Below, in pieces: positions 685 to 13,249 of a stretch of 13,254 bases of DNA. Made by a program: the position numbers and the translations under genes. Positions within the stretch are counted from its first letter, which is position 1. The number at the start of each line of letters is the position of its first letter. Below the pieces are notes generated by a model, which worked only from the letters and a program-made list of their open reading frames with translations, was not told where the DNA came from and made no database searches. Origin of the DNA: a virus; UHGV virus genome UHGV-0180761; one strand, given 5' to 3'.

Positions 685-795
685 GCGGCGAAAAGGGATG
701 TGGGCACAGGAGATAATCAGATACCGGATAAAACCGTTCTTACCCGCGCCGAACTTATCCTTCTGCGCGGTTTTCGTGTCTATACGATGCATGGA

Positions 796-1380
796 TTACT
801 CCGGATATTTAAAAATTACGTAGGTATGCGACGGGCAGAGTTTGTTAAGCACACACTCGACAACGGTGTCACCCCAGATACGCAGTGCGGAATCACAGGG
901 ATCGCCACATGTCATCCAGGTGGTGTTGGTGGTGGTTGGCATGTTGACCTGCCAGTAATACCGCCATTCCGGCGCATTCACCGCGTCAGTACAGGCCGAT
1001 GAGCAGGTGAACGTGCTTTTGTCGTATCGCGTGATGGTGGCATCTGGTCTGCCCAGGGCAGCAAGCTGTGCAAGATAAAAATCCTCGTTGATGCCGCCCG
1101 CCAGGTTAACCTTCGCATCCAGCCGTTGCTGACGCTGGCGAAGGGTCTGTGTCCCTGCGGGAATACATTCATCCGGCAGGCCGCACAGACGCTCCCAGCG
1201 ATTTATCAGTTCGGTGGTGGTGCGCGGATCCAGCTCCCGCATCAGGGCATCCGCACGCTGATGAACACGGGTTAATGACGGTGCCGCACCGGCAATCGCC
1301 GGATCGCTGGCTGACCACGCCGGACCGGGGGGCAACAGTGCCGACAACAGACGGATGTAATCATCGTTTGTCACGTCCAT
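796..1380 (-). CDS. ymfQ: YmfQ-like phage baseplate/tail-associated protein (DUF2313-type, 194 aa)
   Basis: ORF 796..1461; start moved to the internal Met at 1380 ([12 protein letters not shown]), which has a GGGGA Shine-Dalgarno about 7 nt upstream and gives 194 aa. Family assignment is from memory, not a search. Confidence 0.6.
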
Positions 1381-1497
1381 GAAATCGTCCCCAGTACCCC
1401 AGCTCGCGGACATCCTTCCCGGTGGGTTCATCAAACTCCAGTACGGAGAGTGTCTCACCATGAGCGATAATCGGTTTCTTTAACTCAAGCTCTTTCA

Positions 1498-1854
1498 TTA
1501 CTGGTAATCCCCTTCTTCACCGTGGAACTCAAGATCAACCGTGCCTTCTTCGGCATTATGGTTCGCTTCTCCGTGCAGCCAGGCGGACGACAATACATAG
1601 ACCTGACCGTTCGCCAGCTCGGCAGTGATGGTCATCTCATCAGACGAGGTGATTTTGCTCACCGGAAAATTCTTCGGCACCTTGAAGGTCCCTTTGACAT
1701 AAGGCGCACGGTGAGTTTCCTTGCGGTCCACTGAACCGTCCAGGCCGATGATGTCATCATTGACCGTCCTGTTCATGGGCACCTCAATGCCGCCGGTCAG
1801 CGATAGCTGCTGACCGTCAATTTTGAAATAACAGGTTCCCCCGATACGGGCCAT
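1498..1854 (-). CDS. Hypothetical phage protein, 118 aa (possibly a tail-tube-like remnant of the structural module)
   Basis: Clean ORF whose ATG overlaps the stop of the upstream 490-aa ORF (TAATG arrangement), which suggests translational coupling. No diagnostic motif recognised; function is a guess from position. Confidence 0.5.
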   Translation of the reverse strand: MARIGGTCYFKIDGQQLSLTGGIEVPMNRTVNDDIIGLDGSVDRKETHRAPYVKGTFKVPKNFPVSKITSSDEMTITAELANGQVYVLSSAWLHGEANHNAEEGTVDLEFHGEEGDYQ

Positions 1855-3326
1855 TATGCAGACTCCTCTGAATACTGAAGACGGAACTGGTTAACCACGG
1901 CAAAAACACGCAACTGGTTAACATAGTCAGGCGGGAACAGCGTGTTCAGGCGGTTCGGATCGCTGGCATCACGCTCCACAACCAGGTACTGCTTAAACAG
2001 TTCGTAGTTTTCCACGATCCCCGCACGCTCAAGCTGACGGTAGGTTGCCAGCAGTTCCCCTTTGATCACCGCCGGAGTGACAATCGCCTGACCGGGACCA
2101 AAGCGGGTACCGTCACTGGCAAGCTTGTGACGCCCGTACTTACTGGTAATGACGGATTTCAGTTTGCGCAGTACATACGCGCTGGTATGCAGCGTCTCAC
2201 TGTCGAGGTAGCTGTTATCCGCAACCCCGTAAGCGTTTTTCCTGTACGTGGTGACATCACGCTGAATGCGCAGTACCCCGCTTTCGACATACGCCGTTGC
2301 CACGCCATGAGACAGCAGGGTCTGTTGTTCGGTCATCGTGAACCGTTTCCCCTTCGGCGCAGGCAGCATACCCACCAGCTCACCGGTCTGCGTGGGACGT
2401 GCCGGATCGTTGCGGATAAACACCGCTGCGCGGGCGGTACGGCTTGCCGCCAGCTCGTCGGCAGGCGTCTGGGTCTCTTTTTCGTACCCCGCCAGGGTAA
2501 TGTGCTGCTGGTTAAACTGGTCACCTGCGGTCACCAGTTCTGACAGCGTACCGGTCTTTGCCGTATACACATGACCATACAGCTGACGCGCATAGCTCCA
2601 GCGACCGCTGGTATCGTTCATCTCGGTCAGGCGAATTTCGTTTGCCCAGGCTGTCCAGTTCGGTTCTTTGGGACGAACCACCTCGCCGTCACATTCGGCG
2701 GCCTGCTCGTACAGGGCGATGATTTTTTTCCAGAGCCACTGTGCGCAGGTCAAATCATCCTGCGTTCCCCACTGGCGCTTTTTAGGGCTGAATACAACCG
2801 CATCAGGATGGCGAGTTAAAAACTCCTGTTCAGCCGTCTGCGTGTCCGGTTGCGAAGCGTCCGGACGAGAAGTTTTTTTATCTGACGGATCATGTTTTGA
2901 TTTTACTGACGGATCCCCGCCAGATTCTGACGGGTGAAAACCCGCTTTTTTGCCAGATTTCGACGCATCAAATTTTGACGGGTCAGATTTTGATGCGTCA
3001 GATTTTGACGGGTCAGAATCTGACAGTTGAGAAAATGCCGCTGCCTGAAGCTTCGCAACGTTAAGCTGATAAACATTCGACGCATTGCGGTTACCCTGGC
3101 GACGCGCCTTACGCGTTAACCAGCCTTCTGCTTCCAGCCGTGCGATAGCCGTTCTGACGGTACTCATTCCCGCGCCAATCTGGCGGGCAATGGTTTCAAT
3201 TGATGGCCAGCACACACCTTCGTCATTACTGAAATCAGCCTGGCGGGCCATAATTGCCACGCTGGATAATTTCATGCCTGATGCAGCGCAACCATCCCAT
3301 ACATAGCCGGTTAATTTAGTGCTCAT
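1854..3326 (-). CDS. YmfN-like chimeric protein (490 aa): N-terminal winged-helix replication-initiator-like domain, low-complexity repeat linker, C-terminal phage structural or packaging domain
   Basis: ATG at 3326 with AGAGG Shine-Dalgarno; N-terminus has an HTH-like segment (SIETIARQIGAGMSTVRTAIARLEAEGWL); middle is a D/S/K/P-rich repeat; the C-terminal 250 aa look like a phage virion or packaging protein, but I cannot tell sheath-like from terminase-like without a search. Confidence 0.7.
   Translation of the reverse strand: MSTKLTGYVWDGCAASGMKLSSVAIMARQADFSNDEGVCWPSIETIARQIGAGMSTVRTAIARLEAEGWLTRKARRQGNRNASNVYQLNVAKLQAAAFSQLSDSDPSKSDASKSDPSKFDASKSGKKAGFHPSESGGDPSVKSKHDPSDKKTSRPDASQPDTQTAEQEFLTRHPDAVVFSPKKRQWGTQDDLTCAQWLWKKIIALYEQAAECDGEVVRPKEPNWTAWANEIRLTEMNDTSGRWSYARQLYGHVYTAKTGTLSELVTAGDQFNQQHITLAGYEKETQTPADELAASRTARAAVFIRNDPARPTQTGELVGMLPAPKGKRFTMTEQQTLLSHGVATAYVESGVLRIQRDVTTYRKNAYGVADNSYLDSETLHTSAYVLRKLKSVITSKYGRHKLASDGTRFGPGQAIVTPAVIKGELLATYRQLERAGIVENYELFKQYLVVERDASDPNRLNTLFPPDYVNQLRVFAVVNQFRLQYSEESA
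2955..3026. repeat. Tandem repeat, about 5 imperfect copies of a 15-bp unit (GATTTTGACGGGTCA / GATTTTGATGCGTCA), inside the YmfN-like CDS
   Basis: Directly visible: agatttcgacgcatca aattttgacgggtca gattttgatgcgtca gattttgacgggtca gaatctgacag. Encodes pentapeptide repeats (SKSDA/SKSDP) on the minus strand; related degenerate copies continue upstream to about 2893. Confidence 0.8.
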
Positions 3327-3335
3327 GACCGACCT

Positions 3336-3674
3336 CTATTTCCCTGAATTTACGACGAAACTGTTCGAGCGGGCTGAAGCACTCATGCTCATAGCCTTCG
3401 CGGAGGTAGATAACACGTTGTGTTTCCGGCTCCCAACGAATGACTCTGACGGGCACACCGTAGTGATCTTTGAACCAGCGGTTAACTTGTCGCAAAGGAC
3501 TGTCTCCTTCTGCCGGTTGAAATCACCCACAGCCCACTCTGCAAAGCTGTGGGTTACAATTTCCCTGTCACCTGGTACATTTACTGCATAGCAATACTCC
3601 ACCTTCGCTTTTCCACCCGGTACAGGAAGCGCAATCAGTTGCGAGCGACGGTAGTGTGTTGTTAAACTGTTCAT
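3336..3674 (-). CDS. ymfM: YmfM-like protein (112 aa)
   Basis: ORF length equals K-12 YmfM (112 aa) and sits in the same position after the YmfL-like gene; ATGA start/stop overlap with the upstream gene. Identity by length and synteny only. Confidence 0.6.
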
Positions 3675-4234
3675 GCGTTAGTTTCTCCACAGTCACGACA
3701 CGCCACGGCGCCCGGAGCTGCACACTCGCGGGCGTCACTACTTTCTGAAACGCAAAAGATTTTGTAGACCAGTGCTGCATGCTCCTGCAGCTTCGAAATT
3801 GAGAGATACAGCTCATCGTTAATTGCTGTCTTCTCATGCGGTTCCACTACACCGTCTTCAATTGCTGAACGAATCTGTTTTGAATAACTGCCGATCTGTT
3901 CAATGACTTCCAGCAGGCGTTGGTTGATATCGGCGTTGTCCACATCCTCGACGTCAGGAAGAGACACAAAGACGCCATTTGCAGACTGCGCCACAGCATC
4001 AGCAATGAAGTGAGTGCCACCAGCACGCTGTAAAACCATTGCCCATCCCAGCGGGAAAATCTGATCGCCATCTGCACGAAGGCGGTTGAATAAAGCGTTT
4101 TCTGTTACATCGAGCCAGTCAGCCGCTTCAGCGTAACCACCCGGCAACGCCGCGATAGTTTTTCTGACAGCTTTCACGTACCACTCAGGCTGTTTTTCTA
4201 TTTTCCAGTGATGCTTACCCACGGTTAGCCTCAT
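3671..4234 (-). CDS. ymfL: YmfL-like protein (187 aa), function unknown
   Basis: First gene downstream of cro on the minus strand, coupled to the YmfM-like gene by an ATGA overlap; C-terminal CxxC pair ([17 protein letters not shown]). Name by synteny and length (K-12 YmfL about 189 aa). Confidence 0.6.
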
Positions 4235-4265
4235 CGTTCTGTGGTTAAAAATTGAAAGTGTTCTG

Positions 4266-4466
4266 CTAATCTTTCGGATAGATATCCGGTCTTAAGTCAG
4301 ATTTCGTAATTGCACCTGACGTGCATTGCTCAAGTTTTTTAGCCAGCACAAAACTGGCTTTTTTATAGCCATTGAAAACCAGCCGTAAGTAGCCAGGTGT
4401 TGAGCCAACTTTTCCGGCCAACTCGCCCTGCTGTTCTTTGGTTAAAGAGTCCCAATACGCTTTCAT
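4266..4466 (-). CDS. croE: Cro-like repressor (66 aa)
   Basis: Short form MKAYWDSLTKEQQGELAGKVGSTPGYLRLVFNGYKKASFVLAKKLEQ with an HTH; GAGG Shine-Dalgarno upstream of ATG at 4466; divergent from the cI-type repressor across an operator region. The 167-aa ORF in the track is an artefactual extension through the operators. Confidence 0.75.
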   Translation of the reverse strand: MKAYWDSLTKEQQGELAGKVGSTPGYLRLVFNGYKKASFVLAKKLEQCTSGAITKSDLRPDIYPKD

Positions 4467-4468
4467 AC

Positions 4469-4493
4469 AATATGTACCTCCGGTGTACATATT
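4469..4493. promoter_or_regulatory. Operator-like palindrome AATATGTAC-N7-GTACATATT (OR site)
   Basis: Perfect 9-bp inverted arms directly upstream of the cro start, in the cro/cI intergenic region. Confidence 0.55.
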
Positions 4494-4520
4494 ACATGAT
4501 TGAAATGAACCTTCAAGATA

Positions 4521-4541
4521 CTTGTACCTTAACGGTACAAG
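4521..4541. promoter_or_regulatory. Operator-like palindrome CTTGTACC-N5-GGTACAAG (OR site), overlapping a putative PRM-like promoter
   Basis: Perfect 8-bp inverted arms 16 bp upstream of the repressor ATG; TTTAAT at 4545-4550 is a possible -10 that would give a near-leaderless repressor mRNA (inference). Confidence 0.55.
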
Positions 4542-4556
4542 GGTTTTAATTTCGTT

Positions 4557-5231
4557 ATGAAAACAATCCATGACATCCGGCGGTCTAACGCCAGAAAACT
4601 GAGAGATGGTGTTGGCGGGAATTCTTCCTTTGCCACTATGATTGATCGCGAGCCAACCCAGACCAGCAGGTTTATGGGAGATGGTGCTACTAAAAATATC
4701 GGTGACAGCATGGCACGACACATCGAAAAATGTTTCGACCTGCCTGTCGGATGGCTCGATCAAGAACACCAGACAACGAACATCACAAAAAAACCTGATG
4801 TTTCAATCACTAATAAACAAATCACATTAGTCCCTGTCATATCATGGGTACAGGCCGGAGCATGGAAAGAAGTTGGATATTCTGAGGTTGATTTGAGCAC
4901 AGCAGAAACGTATCCCTGCCCTGTACCCTGTGGGGAAATGACTTATATCTTGCGGGTGATAGGTGATTCAATGATTGATGAGTACCGCCCGGGAGACATG
5001 ATTTTTGTCGATCCTGAAGTACCTGCCTGCCACGGTGACGACGTTATTGCATTGATGCACGATACAGGCGAAACCACCTTCAAAAGGTTGATAGAAGATG
5101 GGACACAGCGTTATCTCAAAGCGTTAAACCCAAACTGGCCTGAGCCTTACATTAAGATCAACGGTAATTGCTCTATAATTGGTACAGTGATTTTCTCAGG
5201 AAAACCAAGAAGATACAAAATCAAAGCCTAA
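4557..5231 (+). CDS. cohE: CI-type prophage repressor with C-terminal S24 (LexA-like) autopeptidase domain (224 aa)
   Basis: C-terminal S24 motif (VIGDSMIDEYRPGDMIFVDPE ... TFKRL, Ser/Lys dyad context); divergent from cro; length equals K-12 CohE (224 aa). Confidence 0.85.
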   Translation: MKTIHDIRRSNARKLRDGVGGNSSFATMIDREPTQTSRFMGDGATKNIGDSMARHIEKCFDLPVGWLDQEHQTTNITKKPDVSITNKQITLVPVISWVQAGAWKEVGYSEVDLSTAETYPCPVPCGEMTYILRVIGDSMIDEYRPGDMIFVDPEVPACHGDDVIALMHDTGETTFKRLIEDGTQRYLKALNPNWPEPYIKINGNCSIIGTVIFSGKPRRYKIKA

Positions 5232-5243
5232 TCAATGTTTATG

Positions 5244-5266
5244 AACCTGCTTCGGCAGGTTTTTTT
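5244..5266 (+). terminator. Rho-independent terminator downstream of the repressor gene
   Basis: AACCTGC-TTCG-GCAGGTT hairpin followed by a run of 6-7 T, starting 13 nt after the repressor stop codon. Confidence 0.7.
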
Positions 5267-5270
5267 ATAC

Positions 5271-5303
5271 TTGACAATGTACCTTTGAGATACATAATGT
5301 ACC
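5271..5303 (+). promoter_or_regulatory. PL-like sigma70 promoter with two direct AATGTACC operator half-sites
   Basis: TTGACA (5271-5276), 16-bp spacer, CATAAT (5293-5298); AATGTACC at 5276-5283 and 5296-5303 overlap the -35 and -10, sharing the TGTACC core of the cro/cI operators. Confidence 0.55.
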
Positions 5304-5380
5304 CAAGCGAAACAACGAACAGGCAGGACGCCCACGAAGTAGCCGCCTGGGGCATATGAAGTCCAGGATGATTCGTTAGC

Positions 5381-5407
5381 AACAAAAAAGCGCCCTACAG
5401 GACGCTT
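5381..5407 (-). terminator. Minus-strand intrinsic terminator-like hairpin
   Basis: On the minus strand: AAGCG(T)CC-TGTAG-GGCGCTT followed by TTTTGTTG; lies about 240 nt downstream of the stop of the 144-aa minus-strand gene. Confidence 0.4.
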
Positions 5408-5465
5408 AGCTCTTTAACAATCTGGTCCCCATCAACAAGTAACTGATAACTTGAGGAGATGTGAA

Positions 5466-5672
5466 ATGCACAAAACAGAACCCAAAATCGTCGCGCCTGG
5501 CTACACAGATGAGGAAATTTATGAGTGGATGACAAAGAAGCTGGCAGCTATAAACCAGCTTCGTGAAGTGCTGTCTTATCGACAGGAAACAATAGACTCC
5601 TTAAAAAAACTGGATCAGGAAATCACGGTTTTATCACAGGATGTTACTTTAGATATTGTGCAGACAAATTAG
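5466..5672 (+). CDS. Hypothetical small protein (68 aa), first ORF after the PL-like promoter
   Basis: ATG at 5466 with GAGGAG Shine-Dalgarno 6 nt upstream (the ORF track started at an upstream TTG); predicted helical/coiled-coil-like. Its 3-prime end overlaps the convergent 144-aa gene by 29 nt. Confidence 0.4.
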   Translation: MHKTEPKIVAPGYTDEEIYEWMTKKLAAINQLREVLSYRQETIDSLKKLDQEITVLSQDVTLDIVQTN

Positions 5673-6078
5673 GATCCCATTCATTTTCGTCAAAATCATC
5701 AAAGTGATGAATTTGTGATCTCCAGTCTCGATAATCTAAAAATTTCTGGGCGGTTACGCTTATTTTATCAAGTGTGAGTTCATCCTGAATTGAAAGAAGA
5801 AGTTCATCAAATTTCATCTCATTAATCTGTTTTGGCATCCAGTGATGCTTCATCAGAATAAGGTGAACCAGAGCCTTTTTCCCATTCAACTGATTATAGG
5901 GAGTGCCGAATTTCTTCCGGTGCTCATGTAAGACAAGGTCCAAAAGAGTAAGTAATGTTGCCCTTGATTCAACTTTGCTTATTTCGACTGATGACACTAC
6001 CCCACTGATTTCAATGCCCCGATACTTTCCAACATTTTCACAGTGGGATTTGTACAGCGTATAGATATTACCGGACAT
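5644..6078 (-). CDS. Hypothetical protein (144 aa), AT-rich moron gene of unknown function
   Basis: Clean ORF with AAGGA Shine-Dalgarno about 7 nt upstream of ATG at 6078; visibly more AT-rich than flanking prophage genes; opposite orientation to the surrounding plus-strand operon. No motif recognised. Confidence 0.6.
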   Translation of the reverse strand: MSGNIYTLYKSHCENVGKYRGIEISGVVSSVEISKVESRATLLTLLDLVLHEHRKKFGTPYNQLNGKKALVHLILMKHHWMPKQINEMKFDELLLSIQDELTLDKISVTAQKFLDYRDWRSQIHHFDDFDENEWDPNLSAQYLK

Positions 6079-6092
6079 TTCTTTTCCTTTTG

Positions 6093-6143
6093 CGTTGTTG
6101 GGGATAACCAGATTAACCGAATCCTTGTTGTTGGGGAATAACC
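6093..6143. repeat. Direct repeat GTTGTTGGGGATAACCAG / GTTGTTGGGGAATAACCAGG upstream of the 144-aa gene
   Basis: Two 18-20-bp near-identical copies (one has an extra A) separated by about 13 bp, sitting 15-65 bp upstream of the minus-strand start codon. Confidence 0.6.
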
Positions 6144-6364
6144 AGGTCCACCTCGCCTGATGTGGCTAAAAGCAGGCACATAACAGCTAAGTATTTTCAA
6201 CCAGAGAGAATCCTTAGCGTTGTGGTGAATGCGGCTCAGCGCACGCGGGTTAAGGTTGAGGCTGACAGTCGACCTTCTGTGGATACCCACCCGCCTGGTG
6301 TGCAACCTTCGCCAGGCACCGGGAGGCACCCGGCACCACAACTTTATGCTGTGTGTAGTCCTGG

Positions 6365-6410
6365 CGGTACCAGTTTGTACCCTTGCTTCCGGCTGGTACC
6401 GTCCTTTTTA
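6365..6410 (+). promoter_or_regulatory. Inverted repeat CGGTACCAG-N19-CTGGTACCG followed by a T-run; operator cluster or terminator-like element in a non-coding stretch
   Basis: Perfect 9-bp arms; the spacer contains TTGTACCC (same core as the cro/cI operators); followed by TCCTTTTTA. Lies in a roughly 400-bp GC-rich region with no convincing ORF. Confidence 0.35.
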
Positions 6411-6546
6411 CAAAACAGAGAAGAGCATCACCGGACGACGGGCTCATAACCCAATCCATCCGGGCGGCTGCCACCGCAGGTGTTCTTCTCTGTTTTGTGG
6501 AGAAACTAATCGGCCTTGCAGGGTCGATATGATGAGGAGCAGCAAA

Positions 6547-6909
6547 ATGGCTAGCGAACGCAGTACTGATGTGCAGGCATTTATCGGGGAGCTGGACGGC
6601 GGCGTATTTGAAACCAAAATCGGCGCAGTTCTCAGTGAAGTCGCTTCCGGTGTGATGAACACGAAAACCAAAGGTAAGGTCTCACTCAACCTGGAAATCG
6701 AACCATTTGATGAGAACCGTGTGAAAATCAAACACAAACTCTCATATGTTCGCCCGACTAACCGCGGGAAAATTTCCGAAGAAGACACCACCGAAACGCC
6801 GATGTATGTCAATCGCGGTGGTCGCCTGACTATTCTGCAGGAAGACCAGGGACAGTTACTGACTCTTGCCGGTGAACCTGACGGAAAACTCCGCGCAGCA
6901 GGTCGTTAA
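6547..6909 (+). CDS. YfdP-like prophage protein (120 aa), function unknown
   Basis: Start set at ATG 6547 (GAGGAG 8 nt upstream) rather than the 226-aa track ORF; 120 aa and position upstream of a YfdQ-like gene match the CPS-53 yfdP-yfdQ-yfdR arrangement as I recall it. Confidence 0.55.
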   Translation: MASERSTDVQAFIGELDGGVFETKIGAVLSEVASGVMNTKTKGKVSLNLEIEPFDENRVKIKHKLSYVRPTNRGKISEEDTTETPMYVNRGGRLTILQEDQGQLLTLAGEPDGKLRAAGR

Positions 6910-6974
6910 TATCGTTTTTAATTAACTGATTATTTATCTCATCACTGAATATCTTTATATAGTGAGGACTTATT

Positions 6975-7799
6975 ATGTCTCAGAACTTAGACGCAACCGC
7001 AATTAATCAAATCCATGCCCTTATTTCTGCTCAGGGTGTTAATGAAATTATCAGTAAGATTGGTGCCGATGCTGTGGCATTGCCTGAGAATTTCCGCATT
7101 CATGACCTGGAAAAATTTAATTTAAATCGCTTCCGTTTCCGTGGTGCGCTTTCCACTGCCAGCATTGATGACTTTACCCGTTATTCTAAAGATCTTGCAG
7201 ATGAAGGCACCCGCTGCTTTATCGATGCTGATAATATGCGTGCCGTCAGTGTGCTTAACCTGGGTACTATTGATGAACCAGGCCACGCAGATAACACCGC
7301 CACTCTCAAACTGAAAAAGACAGCACCGTTCTCTGCTCTGTTGTCTGTTCACGGCGAGCGTAACTCCCAGAAATCACTGGCAGAATGGATTGAAGACTGG
7401 GCCGACAACCTTGTGGGCTTTGATGCTAATGGTGACGCCATTCAGGCAACCAAAGCGGCTGCGGCGATCCGTAAAATCACAATTGAAGCGAACCAGACTG
7501 CTGATTTTGAAGACAATGACTTCAGCGGCAAACGCTCCCTGATGGAGTCTGTCGAAGCGAAGACCAAAGACATTATGCCAGTGGCATTTGAATTTAAATG
7601 CGTTCCGTTTGAAGGTCTGAAAGAACGTTCTTTTAAATTACGCCTCAGCATTATCACTGGCGATCGTCCTGTACTTGTTCTGCGCATTATTCAGCTGGAG
7701 GCGGTGCAGGAAGAAATGGCTAACGAATTTCGCGATCTGCTTGTTGAGAAATTCAAAGACAGCAAAGTAGAAACCTTTATTGGTACTTTCACCGCCTGA
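6975..7799 (+). CDS. YfdQ-like prophage protein (DUF2303-type, 274 aa)
   Basis: Clean ATG with TGAGGA Shine-Dalgarno; length matches CPS-53 YfdQ (274 aa); sits between YfdP-like and YfdR-like genes. Confidence 0.75.
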
Positions 7800-7811
7800 T
7801 TTGATTACTGC

Positions 7812-7833
7812 AAATGCCCCTGCGGGGGCATTT
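7812..7833. other. Perfect stem-loop AAATGCCCC-TGCG-GGGGCATTT between the YfdQ-like and HD-domain genes
   Basis: 9-bp GC-rich stem with 4-nt loop, 12 nt after the YfdQ-like stop; only a short TTT follows, so it is more likely an attenuator or RNA-processing/stability element than a strong terminator. Confidence 0.35.
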
Positions 7834-7927
7834 ATGGAAACGTAATTAACTCAATAATCGCCGGATGGTGAGGGCTTCCTTTTACCAGAATTCAGTGCGG
7901 TGCAGCGCAAATAACGTGGAGAACAAA

Positions 7928-8476
7928 ATGTCATTTATTAAAACTTTTTCTGGGAAGCATTTTTATTATGACAGGATAAATAAAGACGATATCGTTATTA
8001 ACGATATCGCGTTTTCCCTTTCAAATATCTGTCGCTTTGCAGGACATCTTTCACACTTCTACAGCGTCGCCCAACATGCGGTTCTTTGCAGCCAACTGGT
8101 ACCGCAGGAATTTGCTTTTGAAGCGTTAATGCATGATGCAACAGAAGTGTATTGCCAGGACATCCCCGCTCCACTGAAACGCCTTCTTCCTGACTATAAA
8201 CAGATGGAAGAAAAAATAGACGCCGTAATCCGTGAGAAATACGGGTTACCCCCGGTTATGAGTACGCCCGTGAAATATGCCGATCTCATCATGCTGGCAA
8301 CCGAACGCCGCGATCTCGGGCTTGATGATGGCTCTTTCTGGCCTGTACTGGAAGGCATCCCGGCAACAGAGATGTTCAACGTGATTCCACTGGCACCGGG
8401 CCATGCCTACGGGATGTTTATGGAACGCTTTAAAGAGCTGCATAAGATGCATAAACAATCCAGACAGCGAAATTAA
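7928..8476 (+). CDS. HD-domain phosphohydrolase, YfdR-like 5-prime-deoxynucleotidase family (182 aa)
   Basis: HD-domain signature residues (RFAGHLSHFYSVAQHA ... LMHDATEVY ... D); start set at ATG 7928 with GGAG Shine-Dalgarno instead of the upstream ATG at 7865. Confidence 0.8.
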   Translation: MSFIKTFSGKHFYYDRINKDDIVINDIAFSLSNICRFAGHLSHFYSVAQHAVLCSQLVPQEFAFEALMHDATEVYCQDIPAPLKRLLPDYKQMEEKIDAVIREKYGLPPVMSTPVKYADLIMLATERRDLGLDDGSFWPVLEGIPATEMFNVIPLAPGHAYGMFMERFKELHKMHKQSRQRN

Positions 8477-8519
8477 CTAGTGAAATAGTTTTGTAGCAAA
8501 AGAAATGAGGTTATCAAAA

Positions 8520-8765
8520 ATGCTTCAAATGCTGACACTTGAGGAATGGGCTGCGGAAAAATACAGAAGTAATCCTCCAAGCGTGTCCACATTGCGTCGT
8601 TATGCTAAGCAGAATTTATTTTGTCCACCGGCAATGAAACAAGGTCGACTATGGCGAGTGCGTGAGGACGCAGAGTTAGTTGGGGAATTAGTTACTCCTG
8701 TCATCAAGAAAAATGATTCTATTATTCTACAAAGGATTTTAAGTAATGGCAGCCAGACCACGTAA
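8520..8765 (+). CDS. xis: Excisionase (81 aa)
   Basis: Small basic protein directly upstream of and overlapping the integrase start by 20 nt; start set at ATG 8520 (GAGG 9 nt upstream), giving 81 aa, the length of K-12 XisE. Confidence 0.7.
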   Translation: MLQMLTLEEWAAEKYRSNPPSVSTLRRYAKQNLFCPPAMKQGRLWRVREDAELVGELVTPVIKKNDSIILQRILSNGSQTT

Positions 8766-9873
8766 AAATAATGTTTCAGTCCCGAACTTGTATCCGCTTT
8801 ATAGTAGAAAAGTAAATAAAGTCTATTGGCGATATAAACATCCAGTGACCGGGAAGTTTCATTCTTTAGGCACAAACGAAGCTGAAGCCATTGCTATTGC
8901 CACTGAGGCAAATTCACGCCTGGCTGAGCAAAGAACCCGGCAGATTCTGGCTATCAGTGACAGGATCGCAACCAGCAAAGGAAAAGCAATCACAACGTCA
9001 ACCTGGTTAGATCGCTATCAAGCAATCCAGGAAGACAGACTGAAAAGTGGCGATATAAAGCTCAACACCTATAAACAGAAAGCCAAACCAGTATCCTTGC
9101 TCAGGGAACGAGCAGGACTGAAGTTGATATCAGCCGTTGATGTCAGAGATATAGCACAATTACTTGATGAGTATATCTCTGCTGGACAGCCTAGAATGGC
9201 CCAGGTCGTAAGGTCTGTATTGATCGATGTGTTTAAGGAAGCACAGCATTACGGCGAAGTTCCACCAGGGTATAACCCTGCTCTTGCAACGAAGCAACCC
9301 AGAAGGAAAATTAGCCGTCAACGCCTCAGCCTAGAAGAATGGAAAAAAATATTCGATATCGCAGACGCCGCTCATCGTTATATGGGAAATGCCATGCTCC
9401 TAGCTTTGGTCACTGGGCAGCGTTTAGGAGATATATCCAAAATGAAATTTAGTGATATTTGGGAGGATCATCTTCACGTCATTCAGGAAAAGACCGGGAG
9501 CAAAATCGCTATCCCTCTTTCTTTACGTTTGAATGCTATCAACTGGTGTTTACGTGATGTAGTAGCTCGCTGCCGTGACTACGCAGTCAGCCCATACTTA
9601 GTGCATTTTTTCCGTACTACATCACAGGCTGAACGTGGCGCACAGGTAAAAGCTAATACACTAACGATGAACTTTAGCAAGGCACGTGATCTGGCAGAAA
9701 TTGATTGGGGTACTGGAACTCCAGCAACTTTTCATGAACAAAGATCTTTATCTGAGCGTCTTTACAAGGAACAAGGGATTGATACCAGAAAGTTACTGGG
9801 CCATAAAACCCAGCAGCAAACCGATCGTTACCATGATGACCGAGGGAAAGGTTGGAGCAAAGTAGCATTGTAA
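8746..9873 (+). CDS. intE: Tyrosine integrase, phage integrase family (375 aa)
   Basis: C-terminal catalytic region with conserved Arg/His/Tyr context (LLGHKTQQQTDRYHDD), N-terminal arm-binding region; 375 aa equals K-12 IntE; preceded by xis. Confidence 0.9.
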   Translation: MAARPRKNNVSVPNLYPLYSRKVNKVYWRYKHPVTGKFHSLGTNEAEAIAIATEANSRLAEQRTRQILAISDRIATSKGKAITTSTWLDRYQAIQEDRLKSGDIKLNTYKQKAKPVSLLRERAGLKLISAVDVRDIAQLLDEYISAGQPRMAQVVRSVLIDVFKEAQHYGEVPPGYNPALATKQPRRKISRQRLSLEEWKKIFDIADAAHRYMGNAMLLALVTGQRLGDISKMKFSDIWEDHLHVIQEKTGSKIAIPLSLRLNAINWCLRDVVARCRDYAVSPYLVHFFRTTSQAERGAQVKANTLTMNFSKARDLAEIDWGTGTPATFHEQRSLSERLYKEQGIDTRKLLGHKTQQQTDRYHDDRGKGWSKVAL

Positions 9874-10078: not shown

Positions 10079-10576
10079 ATGCCACATTTAGACGAAATTC
10101 GCAGAAAGCTAAGGAAACAATGTCCTACATCCGCAGGCGAGGATGGTGAAGAGTATGCTCTTAAATGGTTAGAAAACTCCCAATGGGAGTTTGTATATGT
10201 CGAACAAGGAAAAACAGACCTATCTAAAAGTTTAAAAATATATGGGGGAAAACGCCCCGATTTTATTATTAAAGTTGATAGTAACACCTTTATTCTTCTG
10301 GATGCAAAGTATCATTCAACAGAGAACTGCACCTCCTTTACACTCACAGAGTGTGAAATAGGTAAGTATCGCGCACTCAAGCAATTTTTAATTAATAAAA
10401 ATAGCGAACTTACGTTCGAAGTGATTTTCATGGTATTTCCAAAAGAAAAAGATGGCAAGAAATTTGTATTTGTTAGTTTGGATGAGTTTGATAAAGGAGA
10501 ATGTGTAACTCTAGCATCAAAAAATGCAACAAAGATTAGTCTACTCAATAGAGATAATTTATGGCTTGACCATTAA
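10079..10576 (+). CDS. Hypothetical protein (165 aa) with a PD-(D/E)xK nuclease-fold signature
   Basis: Motif P60-D61 (GGKRPDFII) followed 14 residues later by hydrophobic-hydrophobic-D-A-K (FILLDAKY), with upstream Glu candidates; AAGGGA Shine-Dalgarno upstream of ATG; located in the AT-rich cargo after int. Confidence 0.6.
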   Translation: MPHLDEIRRKLRKQCPTSAGEDGEEYALKWLENSQWEFVYVEQGKTDLSKSLKIYGGKRPDFIIKVDSNTFILLDAKYHSTENCTSFTLTECEIGKYRALKQFLINKNSELTFEVIFMVFPKEKDGKKFVFVSLDEFDKGECVTLASKNATKISLLNRDNLWLDH

Positions 10577-10865: not shown

Positions 10866-11705
10866 CTATCTAAATCTAACCTCACAAAACCAGTTATTTT
10901 CCGAGAGACAACTATAGAGTGCGGATTGCCAAGAATTTAAGCTTACCGATTTTTTTCCAGCTGCGGTTTCAGTCAAGTATTTTTTTAACTCGATACTCCC
11001 CCCCCCATCGTAAATTCTCTTTGCGATATATTCAATGCTCGCTAGTTCTTCAGCTGCATGTGATGCATAAAGAGCAGACAACTTAAATGCCTTAAAGTGA
11101 TACTTCATACGTTTAGCTAAAAGTGGGGGGCAATCTTCAGGTGGCTCTACATAAAACTCTATCGCTACAGGAATAGATTCCCGTATTTTTGCCTTAACCC
11201 AAACAAATGCTTCTACATCATCGTAATATGGGTGCAAAGTTTCTTCTTCTGAGCAAATTGGGATATCTTCGCTCTTTGTTTTATTACAATCCTGACAGGC
11301 TGGTATAAGATTAAAAGGCGATACAGCCAATGATGGAAAATGTGCTTTAGGTAAGTGATGATCTAATGTCGATACTACTCTTTGAGAACATAGTGGGCAT
11401 CTTCCATGATCTGGAAGTGACATTAACTTGTCATAATAGATACGCCCTGGGGCTAATTTCTTAGCCATTCTGCTTGTATAGACAACCTTCATTTCGTCAA
11501 CTGTAACAACAGTGGCAACATTGTCTTTAGGCAAAATTGTATGTAATTGTGCAATTGATACTTTTGCATCAAATTCTATTGAGGAATCTTCTATTTCTTG
11601 AGAACATGCTATAAGCCTCCTCTTTAAATCTTCATCGCGAACTCGATCAATGCATGCATTAAATACATCCAACGCACTATCATTCGGTTTTAAGAGTTTT
11701 TTCAT
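10866..11705 (-). CDS. HNH endonuclease-domain protein (279 aa), second gene of an ATPase-nuclease operon
   Basis: Zinc-finger HNH signature CPLC(103-106) ... DHHLPK(115-120) ... N132 ... CQDCN(137-141); the ATG overlaps the stop of the upstream ATPase gene (ATGA), so the two are translationally coupled. Confidence 0.8.
   Translation of the reverse strand: MKKLLKPNDSALDVFNACIDRVRDEDLKRRLIACSQEIEDSSIEFDAKVSIAQLHTILPKDNVATVVTVDEMKVVYTSRMAKKLAPGRIYYDKLMSLPDHGRCPLCSQRVVSTLDHHLPKAHFPSLAVSPFNLIPACQDCNKTKSEDIPICSEEETLHPYYDDVEAFVWVKAKIRESIPVAIEFYVEPPEDCPPLLAKRMKYHFKAFKLSALYASHAAEELASIEYIAKRIYDGGGSIELKKYLTETAAGKKSVSLNSWQSALYSCLSENNWFCEVRFR
10998..11006. repeat. Homopolymeric C9 tract (G9 on the coding strand) inside the HNH gene
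   Basis: Directly visible: ctccccccccccatc at 10996-11009; encodes Gly234-Gly236 of the HNH protein. Confidence 0.9.
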
Positions 11706-13249
11706 GATTGGTTTCTCTTAATTAAAAACAAAGCCCGCAAAATACCTCTAGCTTCAATTCCAAGTTGCCCATTGAAATTTTGCACAGCTGAATCGTAATC
11801 TTCGAATTTATTTACAGCATCGTCAAGAAGATTATGGAATCCAGAGTCGGTATTTTCCAATCCAAATACCTCCCTCGTTAGTATACCCACATTTTCACCG
11901 AAAGATTCTGTTTCTAGCCTTTCTACTTTAGACAAGTAGCCACTACGCCACAACTTCCACGTACAGCTTCGAGGAACTTCCTGGAGAACTACAGGAGAGT
12001 GGGTAGCTATTATAGATACTGCATTCCTATTAATTAATAAATCAGAAAGAGACCTTACAAAAGCTGATAATAATGGTGGATGGAGATGAGCTTCTGGTTC
12101 ATCTAAAAAAACCAAGCTTCTTTCTTCCATTGTCTCGACAAGTCTAGTGATAGTTAGCAATACAATTTTGTGCCCGGAACTTAAATTTTTGAATACTCTT
12201 CCTGCAATATCTTTAAACTCATCTTCATCTTGTCTATTCAATATTGATGCTACATTAATGTCAGCAAATACTGGATCTGACTCCAGCTTATCCACAGCCC
12301 TTTTCCAACGTTCAATTTTCCCTCCTGCCTTACAAGAAAGCATACTTTTCACGAATTCATTTTTCAATATAACAGGGCTTTTGGGCGGGAGACTTTTCTC
12401 ATCACCTTTTTTTACTCTTTTTAGTCCCACATATGAAAACTGTATACCTGTAGATTTATCTTTTTTTTCTGATAAAGGTTCTGTTTCATCAAAAGCGCTA
12501 AAAGTGACTGATACTACGTTAGAGAAAAGCTCACCAGCTAGTTGATCTTTAGATGAAAATTCACCGACTTTTGTTGGCGTTGTATTTTCGTCAATTAATG
12601 AACTAATCATATTATTCATTAAATGCGTTTTCCCAACACCATTCCGACCAATTAGCACATGAATATTTGTTGGGGGATTGCTCTCTGGTATCACTTCAAA
12701 ACTTAACTTAATACGGTCAGAGTCAGTGCCTTTCATCACTGGTGAGTTATATGAAAATGAATATTTTGAAAGTCGAGCACCTCCGTTCGCAAGTCGACGA
12801 AACTGTCCCTTAATAGATGTATGGCTGACGGATCTCAGAAGAGATATGCTAGTGACCCTCTCATTTATTGCTTTATTATATATATCTTCACTCAGAGCAA
12901 TATCATTAAGCGATGATAATATTTCATTTCGGATATCTTCTCCTAGTTCATTCAACACTTCGTAAAAACTATCATCTTGACCAACGGAGAAAAAACTCTC
13001 ATCTAGTTTTTCGAAAGCTTCAGGGATACTTGGTCTACTTTGACCTTTCGCCATATTCAATTGGCCAATTTTAGTAGAACCAATAATATTCTTATCCTTA
13101 TTTGAATCTATATAAACCAATGTATACATTGTAGAAAATTCAAACCAGTCATCCCAATTATCAGTAATTAAATAGGCACAGTTAGATTGTTCAACAGAGC
13201 ACATACTTCCCGCAGGCAGCACCTTAAATCTCATCTTTATCCCACTCAT
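11702..13249 (-). CDS. ABC-type (AAA_15/AAA_21-like) ATPase, 515 aa, with an unrecognised 200-aa N-terminal domain; first gene of the ATPase-HNH operon
   Basis: Walker A GRNGVGKT (aa 201-208, nt 12626-12649), signature-like LSSGHK (356-361), Walker B LVFLDEPE (379-386), H-loop ATHSP (415-419). In-frame TAA sits immediately upstream of the first ATG, 5 nt from the window edge, so the promoter is outside the window. Confidence 0.8.
   Translation of the reverse strand: MSGIKMRFKVLPAGSMCSVEQSNCAYLITDNWDDWFEFSTMYTLVYIDSNKDKNIIGSTKIGQLNMAKGQSRPSIPEAFEKLDESFFSVGQDDSFYEVLNELGEDIRNEILSSLNDIALSEDIYNKAINERVTSISLLRSVSHTSIKGQFRRLANGGARLSKYSFSYNSPVMKGTDSDRIKLSFEVIPESNPPTNIHVLIGRNGVGKTHLMNNMISSLIDENTTPTKVGEFSSKDQLAGELFSNVVSVTFSAFDETEPLSEKKDKSTGIQFSYVGLKRVKKGDEKSLPPKSPVILKNEFVKSMLSCKAGGKIERWKRAVDKLESDPVFADINVASILNRQDEDEFKDIAGRVFKNLSSGHKIVLLTITRLVETMEERSLVFLDEPEAHLHPPLLSAFVRSLSDLLINRNAVSIIATHSPVVLQEVPRSCTWKLWRSGYLSKVERLETESFGENVGILTREVFGLENTDSGFHNLLDDAVNKFEDYDSAVQNFNGQLGIEARGILRALFLIKRNQS

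Follow-up and report, generated by a model that had tools for sequence, protein, structure and literature searches.

The replication origin of phage lambda consists of iterons and an AT-rich tract in the middle of gene O, and in Stx phages two extra iterons add 13 residues to the O protein (PMC7466680). Plasmids carrying ori-lambda iterons block the replication of rep-lambda phages (PMC3349717; PMC4488673). A second point of comparison is the e14 prophage of Escherichia coli K-12, whose ymfN (b1149) curators have divided into two pseudogenes, oweE and aaaE. It is likewise an in-frame deletion fusion, of an O-type initiator to a late gene (PMC3614548). For the O initiators with an HTH_36 domain, which are the subject of this work, no published description of an origin was found in the literature.

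The window analysed here is the whole 13,254-nt stretch of virus genome UHGV-0180761. It represents the e14 prophage site at icd, with intE, xisE, pinE and mcrA: the window has intE/xisE-like genes (8505-9873) and pin (50-640), and matching contigs and genomes run on into mcrA, icdC and icd. The prophage also carries defence cargo, a PtuA/HNH pair. It is very probable, in our judgement, that the ORF described below is a deletion scar of prophage decay and that its 15-bp repeat is a native feature of the initiator gene, most likely the replication origin. Overall, the fusion itself is ordinary prophage decay, and the proposed origin is the part that is, modestly, new.

An initiator gene fused to a tail sheath gene

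The features of the chimeric ORF and its neighbours are the following.

3671-4234, minus strand: CII-like ymfL gene, in the same early operon, upstream of the ymfM-like gene
3336-3674, minus strand: ymfM-like gene, in the same early operon, upstream of the chimeric ORF
1854-3326, minus strand: chimeric ORF, 490 aa, ATG at 3326-3324
2627-3326, minus strand: codons 1-233 of a lambdoid O-type replication initiator gene, truncated, 99.9% DNA identity to vB_EcoS-569R4
3117-3239, minus strand: winged helix-turn-helix, Pfam HTH_36, aa 30-70, E=1.2e-9, above the curated cut-off
2627-2629, minus strand: deletion junction with a 3-bp microhomology (TGA in the sense direction, TCA on the plus strand), joining O nt 700 to sheath nt 725
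1854-2629, minus strand: C-terminal 257 codons of a Mu/SfV-type tail sheath (residues 242-498 of 498), from DNA identity, Pfam, PHROG and PDB
1498-1854, minus strand: intact tail tube gene, 118 aa, Pfam Tail_tube E=2.4e-33

A sequence-only reading had claimed a chimeric 490-aa ORF at 1854-3326. The ORF is present on the minus strand, begins with ATG, and ends in a stop codon that shares bases with the start of the tail tube gene. It is a real chimera, with the front of an O-type initiator and the back of a tail sheath. Pfam, PHROG and megablast placed the halves in two unrelated families, and domain searches found no coherent family over the full length, so the chimera reading stands. Megablast cuts the ORF cleanly in two, and no record contains both parents together.

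For the initiator half (2627-3326), megablast gave genes named 'DNA replication protein O', with 98-99.9% identity. Intact parents of the same identity, repeat region included, are the 'replication protein O' or 'primosomal protein' genes of Shigella phages SfIV, SfII and SfV and the O genes of coliphages vB_EcoS-569R4, Kati and PhiR29. The phage proteins are complete at 313 aa (313 codons in vB_EcoS-569R4), whereas the window copy ends at residue 233. The winged-helix initiator N-terminus claimed earlier was recovered as HTH_36 (aa 30-70), and PHROG 391 'replication initiation O-like' covers aa 1-239 (E=5.7e-93). This winged helix is presumed to be the origin-binding domain of the initiator. 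It is not the Pfam Phage_rep_O domain, which lambda O matches. Further on, aa 70-277 of the intact relative align with aa 78-270 of lambda O (E=1e-25, 30% identity), with clear conservation over about aa 175-277. Only aa 175-233 of this lambda-O-like C-terminal domain are retained in the chimeric ORF, and the last 80 residues are gone. Initiators of the HTH_36 type are present in about 2,050 of the 5,426 complete E. coli genomes and also across Enterobacterales. The majority of distant relatives have in common only aa 1 to about 161-169, that is, the binding domain plus the repeat region, and then continue with another C-terminus. Lambdoid N-domain/ori modules show the same swap behaviour.

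The C-terminal half had been thought to be a virion or packaging protein; it proved to be a virion protein and not a packaging one. Codons 234-490 correspond to the 3' half of a Mu-type tail sheath gene (SfV orf11, SfIV gp10, SKA5 'Mup39, L', PDB 9khy), and sheath genes of SfV, SfIV, SKA5 and E. coli prophages match the DNA at 1854-2629 with 98-100% identity. Pfam Phage_sheath_1 (aa 234-360) and Phage_sheath_1C (aa 369-481) were both detected, PHROG 165 matches aa 234-483 with its profile positions 243-493 of 493, and tail sheath residues 250-494 of PDB 9khy match query residues 238-482. The sheath part is a fragment, the N-terminal half (residues 1-241) being missing. As in Mu/SfV-type phages, the tail tube gene follows the sheath directly, but in the window the majority of the tail genes, the tape measure and baseplate genes among them, have been deleted, so no tail can be built. 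Since parts are missing from both of its halves, the fusion protein is probably without function. The sheath part does not yet differ from intact prophage copies (100% identity), so decay has had no time to show, and no signs of selection on the fusion were seen in its sequence. In annotation, the ORF should be labelled a pseudogene-type fusion (O-type initiator fragment :: tail sheath fragment) and not a new protein.

The joint was located by BLAST against phages and by three-way DNA alignment. The parents switch between ...CGCCTGA and CCGAG, TGA being common to both, and the joint-spanning sequence reads ...CGCCTGACCGAG.... The repeat had been taken for the linker that joins the two halves, but the joint, at 2627-2629, is separated from the repeat by 325 nt (about 110 codons) and lies downstream of it in the direction of the gene. 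On the SfIV map, window 2627-8437 equals 31142-25333 and window 1464-2629 equals 9656-8494, so that about 17.1 kb, (39758-31142)+8494, is missing between the halves. The parents, the joint and the roughly 17 kb absent relative to SfIV bear out the suggestion of a deletion scar. We propose that the e14 site in icd received a temperate phage of the SfV/SfIV type, whose early region is lambdoid and whose contractile tail is Mu-like. A single illegitimate recombination across the TGA microhomology would then have removed about 17 kb, from O nt 700 to sheath nt 724, with the antiterminator, lysis, terminase and head genes in between. The truncated genes would by chance have been left in frame as O(1-233)::sheath(242-498).

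The 15-bp repeat region

Two groups of sites were found in the initiator part.

2958-3017, minus strand: four tandem in-frame 15-bp units, TCTGACCCGTCAAAA, TCTGACGCATCAAAA, TCTGACCCGTCAAAA and TTTGATGCGTCGAAA, encoding SDPSK/SDASK/SDPSK/FDASK
2880-2939, minus strand: three near-invariant sites, TTTCACCCGTCAGAA, GGGGATCCGTCAGTA and CATGATCCGTCAGAT, 21 and 24 bp apart, then an A-rich run

With Tandem Repeats Finder, the interval 2954-3017 gave a period of 15 bp, 4.3 copies, 81% matches and the consensus CAGATTTTGACGGGT. The repeat described as about five copies encoding SKSDA/SKSDP is present, with four in-frame units. Each unit is a dyad, TYTGAY-NN-RTCARA, and encodes S-D-x-S-K. The sites at 2880-2939 are the most conserved DNA block of the initiator gene family. 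GAYCCGTCA occurs 5 times in the window (0.15 expected), and four of these five occurrences fall within 2883-3014. In the SfIV genome (39.8 kb), all six matches to GAYNCRTCARA are inside the O gene, within 134 bp; they lie on both strands, which shows the dyad symmetry.

The repeat is wholly inside the initiator part and is native to intact initiator genes across Enterobacterales. The region was found in 69 of 69 non-redundant family members, from Escherichia to Proteus, Providencia and Yersinia. Repeat expansion had been claimed for this locus, but the repeat is not expanded here: the region has the same length in the intact O gene of vB_EcoS-569R4 and in the best 80 IMG/VR loci. Family members carry 4-13 D-x-S units per gene with a modal spacing of 15 bp, and the number differs even among near-identical E. 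coli alleles. The suggested variation in copy number among homologues is real. The repeat is not to be read as a hypervariable linker made by the fusion.

The best 80 IMG/VR loci are 98-100% identical and of no use for codon analysis; sequences were instead obtained from divergent-protein look-ups and a scan of species-representative genomes. We compared columns with a conserved, degenerate amino acid, using the N-terminal domain of the same sequences as an internal control. A single codon accounts for at least 90% of sequences in 17 of 23 linker columns and in 0 of 65 columns of the N-terminal domain (Fisher p=1.6e-13, for related sequences whose columns are not fully independent; a 7-sequence version was also run). 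Serine is encoded by TCA or TCT in 83% of cases in the linker vs 22% in the N-terminal domain, and lysine by AAA in 96% vs 62%. Third codon positions hold 1.5-2.0 bits of information at 2880-2939, compared with 0.74 in the N-terminal domain, and about 75 nt form a block with almost no variation. As judged from this codon use, the repeat region is shown to be under constraint as DNA. All units share one reading frame and encode a segment rich in Ser, Asp and Lys, and some selection on the protein, or concerted evolution of a repeat that is prone to slippage, could contribute to the codon uniformity.

It is unlikely that the repeat is a protein feature only, a flexible low-complexity Ser/Asp/Lys linker that connects the initiator's two domains, changes in length by slippage and has no role as DNA. 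The in-frame units, the hydrophilic pentapeptide, the range of 4-13 units with its variation among near-identical alleles, and the flexible linker at the same place in lambda O are all what such a linker would have. However, synonymous positions are near-invariant across genera, while the N-terminal domains use 2-5 codons per conserved residue. After Ser, Lys and Glu are almost never written with a codon that ends in G (over 500 units, the frequency of G at unit position +11 is 0.00). In the most divergent member the peptide is V/I-D-P-S-N/T in place of S-D-x-S-K, yet the DNA core TTGACCCGTCAA is kept. Finally, the motif is dyad-symmetric and confined to one spot in the whole SfIV genome.

A candidate origin within the initiator gene

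From the dyad units with frozen synonymous sites, and from an arrangement like that of ori-lambda inside gene O, we infer that the 15-bp units are distal origin iterons and the three invariant sites core iterons, bound by the initiator. Binding would be by the initiator's own N-terminal winged helix, and the SKSDx pentapeptides would be the mere translation of the iterons. Changes in unit number may arise by slippage or by recombination between iterons.

The intact initiator and lambda O share the order of a presumed origin-binding domain first and a lambda-O-like domain second, and a place after cII in the early rightward operon. In both genes, dyad sites occupy a comparable relative position within the middle, linker-coding part, with a core spacing of 20-24 bp, and extra sites lengthen the protein. 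The lambda record places the iterons at O nt 349-433 of 900, and their starts are 20, 24 and 23 bp apart; here, the sites occupy nt 310-447 of 942, with spacings of 15, 21 and 24 bp. The initiator differs from lambda O in having HTH_36 and not Phage_rep_O, another site sequence, an additional array with 15-bp spacing and a weak AT-rich tract. Because the N-terminal domain families differ, the analogy with lambda O in binding is one of architecture and not of binding-domain homology. As for gene context, a CII-like gene is located upstream, and some Pantoea relatives have a Phage_lambda_P gene next. The next gene in E. coli relatives is PerC/YfdN-like and not P, and in the window the downstream partner has been deleted.

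The last site is followed by a short, modest A+T tract (25 nt with 72% A+T). GC never falls below 0.40 in 40-nt windows, and the AT-rich tract is clearer in lambda; a marked AT-rich unwinding element after the sites was considered and rejected in favour of a short A-run. A terminator-like hairpin on the antisense strand at 2931-2944 was judged to be due to chance, its left arm not being conserved in relatives, and an Rfam scan of the window gave 0 matches. If the origin reading holds, it provides a concrete origin candidate for phages of the SfV/SfIV/e14/CPS-53 type and explains why initiator lengths differ in multiples of five residues.

Independent deletions at the e14 site

The fusion had been likened to K-12 ymfN as a longer version with an expanded repeat. 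The two are of the same kind and share the locus (icd/intE/pinE/mcrA) and the upstream genes ymfK, ymfT, ymfL and ymfM, and the first 78-79 aa of ymfN are 97% identical to the chimeric ORF. The greater length does not come from repeat expansion, as ymfN retains only those 78-79 initiator residues, lacks the repeat and has another breakpoint. Only aa 1-79 align, and at the DNA level the homology of K-12 with the window stops at 3093. The K-12 gene breaks at O nt 234, inside the winged helix, leaving no repeat region, and the partner is the large terminase (455 aa in all) where the window has the tail sheath (490 aa). By their breakpoints and partners, the two fusions are best described as independent deletions, sibling scars of one another. 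In other strains the same O gene is truncated in different ways, and the e14 site is an example of many independently eroded versions of one phage type at one locus.

Two unrelated prophages, with different integration sites and partners, break at O nt 700 to the nucleotide, immediately before a (TG)4 run. The junction-type pattern gave 0 matches in IMG/VR and JGI metagenomes, compared with at least 120 for the intact sequence, and truncation at O nt 700 was found in none of a spread sample of 60 E. coli records. A deletion hot spot at this nucleotide was considered, and the shared breakpoint was left as an unexplained coincidence. It is improbable that O nt 700 is such a hot spot and/or that the initiator half and origin were kept as a decoy or dominant-negative initiator against related superinfecting phages.

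The proposal in which the truncated initiator and origin are kept because they are useful, as a chromosomal origin decoy or as a fragment that does not recruit helicase, acting against superinfecting phages with the same origin, seems very doubtful. It has a precedent in the plasmids with ori-lambda iterons that block rep-lambda phages (PMC3349717; PMC4488673), but the lambda effects come from multicopy plasmids and here there is a single chromosomal copy. Many independent prophage remnants retain the 5' part of the O gene, with or without repeats, and this prophage carries the PtuA/HNH defence pair. However, the gene adjoins the immunity region, and deletions sparing the repressor and integrase would leave its 5' end in any case; K-12 and strain 23CRST035 retain only 234-288 nt, without repeats. 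The initiator gene also lies within a repressed early operon, and the fusion shows no sequence sign of selection.

Outside the window, the fusion was recovered solely by looking up the exact protein in metagenome assemblies. The identical 490-aa product, with the same neighbours, is carried by 5 metagenome contigs from at least three samples, one of these contigs being 99.97% identical to the window across 11.3 kb. The fusion was found in 0 of 5,426 complete E. coli genomes (megablast) and 0 of 50,697 phage records (BLAST). Tandem repeats and prophage paralogues are classical sources of misassembly and the joint is absent from all complete E. coli genomes searched, but an assembly artefact at the joint or repeat is barely credible given the five contigs from independent assemblies, a joint in unique sequence 325 nt away from the repeat, and an unchanged length of the repeat region in isolated phages and at least 80 viral contigs.

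A second deletion scar is located beyond the tail tube gene, where window 725-1405 equals SfIV 17078-16397, and about 6.7 kb of the SfIV map is missing between this segment and window 1464-2629.

Two parents of the fusion ORF

The 490-codon ORF with an ATG start on the minus strand of the window (1854-3326) is a chimeric product of ordinary deletion, a sibling of K-12 ymfN, and lies in an e14-family prophage that has been eroded. The 15-bp repeat within the ORF played no part in the fusion; its best reading is as origin iterons belonging to a lambda-O-type initiator gene. Both ORF and repeat were reported by a sequence-only reading, and ORF calling and Tandem Repeats Finder recovered them at the same positions.

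Profile matches along the fusion protein
aa 1-239, replication initiation O-like, phrog_391 (PHROGs), profile 1-227 of 298
aa 30-70, HTH_36 (Pfam)
aa 234-360, Phage_sheath_1 (Pfam)
aa 234-483, tail sheath, phrog_165 (PHROGs), profile 243-493 of 493
aa 369-481, Phage_sheath_1C (Pfam)

The halves belong to two distinct families, an O-like initiator and a tail sheath. The replication-initiator-like HTH proposed for the N-terminus was confirmed by HTH_36 and phrog_391. For the C-terminus a virion or packaging protein had been suggested; the virion part stands (Pfam, PHROGs and the one solved structure similar in sequence, tail sheath PDB 9khy, residues 250-494 against query 238-482), while the packaging part does not. 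In a megablast against phage records the ORF divides at a single point: for 1854-2629 the matches are tail sheath and tail tube genes (SKA5, SfIV, SfI, SfII and SfV; 98-99%), and for 2627-3326 they are genes annotated as DNA replication protein O or primosomal protein in vB_EcoS-569R4 (99.9%), Kati and PhiR29/49. In none of the phage records or complete E. coli genomes do the two parts lie side by side.

Junction and deletion history

By three-way DNA alignment the parent switch was located at ...GAAATTCGCCTGA/CCGAGATGAAC..., where both parents have TGA (O, ...CGCCTGA/TGTGTGTG; sheath, ...CTGGTGA/CCGAG), and the joint is therefore window 2627-2629. O contributes nucleotides 1-700 (codons 1-233) to the fusion and the sheath gene nucleotides 725-1497 (residues 242-498), and the lambda-O-like C-terminal domain is cut between WANEIRL and MCVQDGR. 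The repeat had been taken for the linker of the two halves; the joint lies 325 nt downstream of it, and the repeat has no role in joining. The entire window maps to phage SfIV as three co-linear pieces.

Co-linear pieces of the window in SfIV
2627-8437, SfIV 31142-25333
1464-2629, SfIV 9656-8494
725-1405, SfIV 17078-16397

Prophage gene order and the SfIV mapping show that about 17.1 kb is missing at the first gap, between the two parent pieces, which bears out the earlier suggestion of a deletion scar. The O 3' end, nin-type genes, Q, lysis genes, cos, terminase, portal and head genes and the sheath 5' half were lost there. The second gap (about 6.7 kb) removed the tape measure and most baseplate genes. 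At its scar (796-1497) a Mu gp48/YmfQ-type baseplate gene is fused to the beginning of a tail-assembly-chaperone gene, and the mechanically called 221-aa ORF at 796-1461 thereby carries about 26 foreign residues at its N-terminus. A short tail-fibre remnant (640-796) is all that separates the YmfQ-like gene from the pin invertase (50-640). Pin normally acts on an invertible tail-fibre segment, and this target seems mostly gone from the prophage.

A second, independent fusion, protein allele P0002 on locus L169 (9001-10020), has the O gene broken at exactly the same nucleotide 700 (window 2627). It joins O to antiterminator Q, in a prophage with a different integrase beside proBA; this junction also runs via TGA, and its partner side again reads GGTGA, like the sheath partner. 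The breakpoint adjoins a (TG)4 run, shorter by two units in allele P0010. Two results speak against a general hot spot: no truncation at nucleotide 700 was found in a spread sample of E. coli records, and the junction-type sequence had no matches in IMG/VR or JGI metagenomes, against at least 120 in IMG/VR for the intact sequence. The shared breakpoint is either coincidence or a weak hot spot.

No evidence of function was seen for the fusion protein, which is without the last 80 initiator residues and the first 241 sheath residues, in a prophage that has lost genes needed for replication and tail assembly. Its gene lies downstream of cro-like and CII-like genes in the early operon, which the LexA-like repressor encoded at 4557-5231 is expected to keep silent. 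An in-frame join is expected by chance in one case of three, and out-of-frame truncations of the O gene are common in the protein database. The sheath part is 100% identical to intact prophage copies; the deletion is therefore recent, too recent for selection to be judged. Lambda plasmid experiments (PMC3349717, PMC4488673) make a decoy or dominant-negative role against related phages conceivable, but the present data lend it no support. An assembly artefact at repeat or joint is very unlikely in view of five public metagenome contigs that carry the exact 490-aa protein with unchanged neighbours (one matching the window at 99.97% over 11.3 kb), of the unique sequence around the joint and of the equal length of the repeat region in isolated phages and 80 IMG/VR contigs.

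The e14 locus and K-12 ymfN

The flanks lead to the e14 attachment site in icd, and the window and matching contigs carry intE/xisE, the immunity and early genes ymfK/ymfT/ymfL/ymfM, pinE, mcrA and icdC. The same prophage is eroded otherwise in strain 23CRST035 (a 288-bp O remnant beside a tail-fibre remnant) and in strain EC06, where the remnant measures 909 bp. Alignment with K-12 ymfN showed that the likeness noted earlier is right in kind, while the events differ, being independent deletions with other endpoints and partners: ymfN joins 234 nt of O to the large terminase, whereas the window ORF joins 700 nt of O to the tail sheath. Only residues 1-79 are in common (97% identity), and K-12 DNA homology to the window ends at 3093. 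Nor is the repeat expanded here, as had been thought: ymfN has none at all, and the window copy has the standard number of units.

Directly upstream of the fusion (3336-3674, minus strand) lies a full-length ymfM homologue (PHROG 1170). The K-12 gene reportedly acts as an inhibitor of cell division that the SOS response induces (bioRxiv 10.1101/2020.11.19.390815), an activity that the window homologue may retain. Defence cargo of the prophage was found between intE and icd (10866-13249, minus; 10079-10576, plus), where K-12 e14 carries lit, ymfD and ymfE. Profile matches identify a PtuA-type AAA ATPase (515 aa; PADLOC PtuA E=5e-195, PDC-M01A E=3e-210) and an HNH nuclease (279 aa; PDC-M01B E=2e-106), predicted to be a Septu-like defence pair; a 165-aa ORF adjoins them.

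The initiator parent

Lambda O (aa 78-270) aligns with aa 70-277 of the intact 313-aa initiator (30% identity, E=1e-25), most clearly along WG..DLT.A.W...PN...WAN.IRLM..DGR.H...C....D.FW..NVLSP.KLR.KW, but the N-terminal winged helix of the 313-aa initiator is HTH_36 where lambda O has Phage_rep_O. The gene follows a CII-like gene, and in two Pantoea relatives a Phage_lambda_P gene stands directly after it. Exchange of origin-binding domains is a classic modular pattern of lambdoid phages, and together these features point to a lambda-O-type initiator with a swapped origin-binding domain. E. coli members have a PerC/YfdN-like protein after O (locus L001, 3268-3756) instead of a lambda P/DnaC-type helicase loader.

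As a rule, distant relatives have in common no more than aa 1 to about 161-169. Many initiator alleles (P0084-P0103, P0088 and P0110; loci L101-L139) are identical with the E. coli type until DPSVKS (aa 142-143) or about aa 161-169 and then have another C-terminus, Pfam PF09524 (conserved phage C-terminal domain). Recombination between phage lineages seems to use the invariant linker DNA block as a crossover point, and such switching is expected if binding domain and sites move as a single module.

The 15-bp repeat as a putative origin

Tandem Repeats Finder gave a 15-bp period at 2954-3017 (4.3 copies, 81% matches), and a 30-bp period also fits (88%). On the sense strand, 2958-3017 holds four in-frame units coding SDPSK, SDASK, SDPSK and FDASK. 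The repeat was found in all 69 non-redundant genes collected (Escherichia, Shigella, Salmonella, Klebsiella, Citrobacter, Enterobacter, Pantoea, Yersinia, Proteus, Providencia and others). Copy number varies, as had been supposed: genes have 4-13 D-x-S units, and near-identical E. coli alleles differ (P0014 lacks 10 residues, P0022 and P0024 lack 26). Neighbouring units are 15 bp apart in 247 of 431 pairs, the rest mostly 21, 24 or 33 bp. The general unit, TYTGAY-NN-RTCARA, is a degenerate palindrome, and the search pattern thus matches both strands. The complete SfIV genome has six matches (0.79 expected by chance), all of them in one 134-bp stretch of the O gene, and GAYCCGTCA occurs five times in the window (0.15 expected), four of them within 2883-3014.

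Constraint is seen at the DNA level. Among seven homologues with 59-86% protein identity, invariant residues of the N-terminal domain use 2-5 codons (a single codon in 1 of 39 columns), against a single codon in 12 of 17 such linker columns, including GAT-CCG-TCA-GTA (DPSV) and CCG-GAC-GCT-TCG (PDAS). Across the 69 genes, one codon accounts for at least 90% of sequences at 17 of 23 conserved-residue linker columns versus 0 of 65 in the N-terminal domain (Fisher p=1.6e-13, Mann-Whitney p=1.7e-11). Linker serine codons are TCA/TCT in 83% versus 22% in the N-terminal domain, and lysine codons AAA in 96% versus 62%. In a near-invariant block of about 75 nt, ggTTTTgACCCg.CAGAATCTGG.GGgGATCCGTCAGTAAatTCAAaac..GAtCCAtcAg..Aaaaa, third positions carry 1.5-2.0 bits of information, where the N-terminal domain averages 0.74. 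In the most divergent member V/I-D-P-S-N/T stands in place of S-D-x-S-K, yet the DNA core TTGACCCGTCAA persists there as a perfect 5+2+5 dyad.

Lambda and Stx phages carry their origin, a set of O-binding iterons with an AT-rich tract, midway along gene O, and in Stx phages two extra iterons add 13 O residues (PMC7466680). In the lambda record, four iterons of 18 bp span nucleotides 349-433 of the 900-nt O gene (start-to-start 20, 24 and 23 bp); the window sites lie at nucleotides 310-447 of 942. After the 15-bp array come three core sites, at spacings of 21 and 24 bp, and then an A-run, and the AT-rich element is weak (72% A+T over 25 nt). From this architecture, the DNA constraint and the module-like sharing, we infer that window 2880-3017 is a putative origin of the ancestral phage, and the SKSDx peptides would be its translated iterons. 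The new point is modest, an origin candidate for a widespread initiator family; the scar itself adds one more allele to a type already known. Between array and core sites, antisense to the initiator (2931-2944, plus), a small hairpin with a T-run after it (CGGGTGAAAACCCG CTTTTTTGCC) is probably a chance feature, as its left arm is unconserved in relatives.
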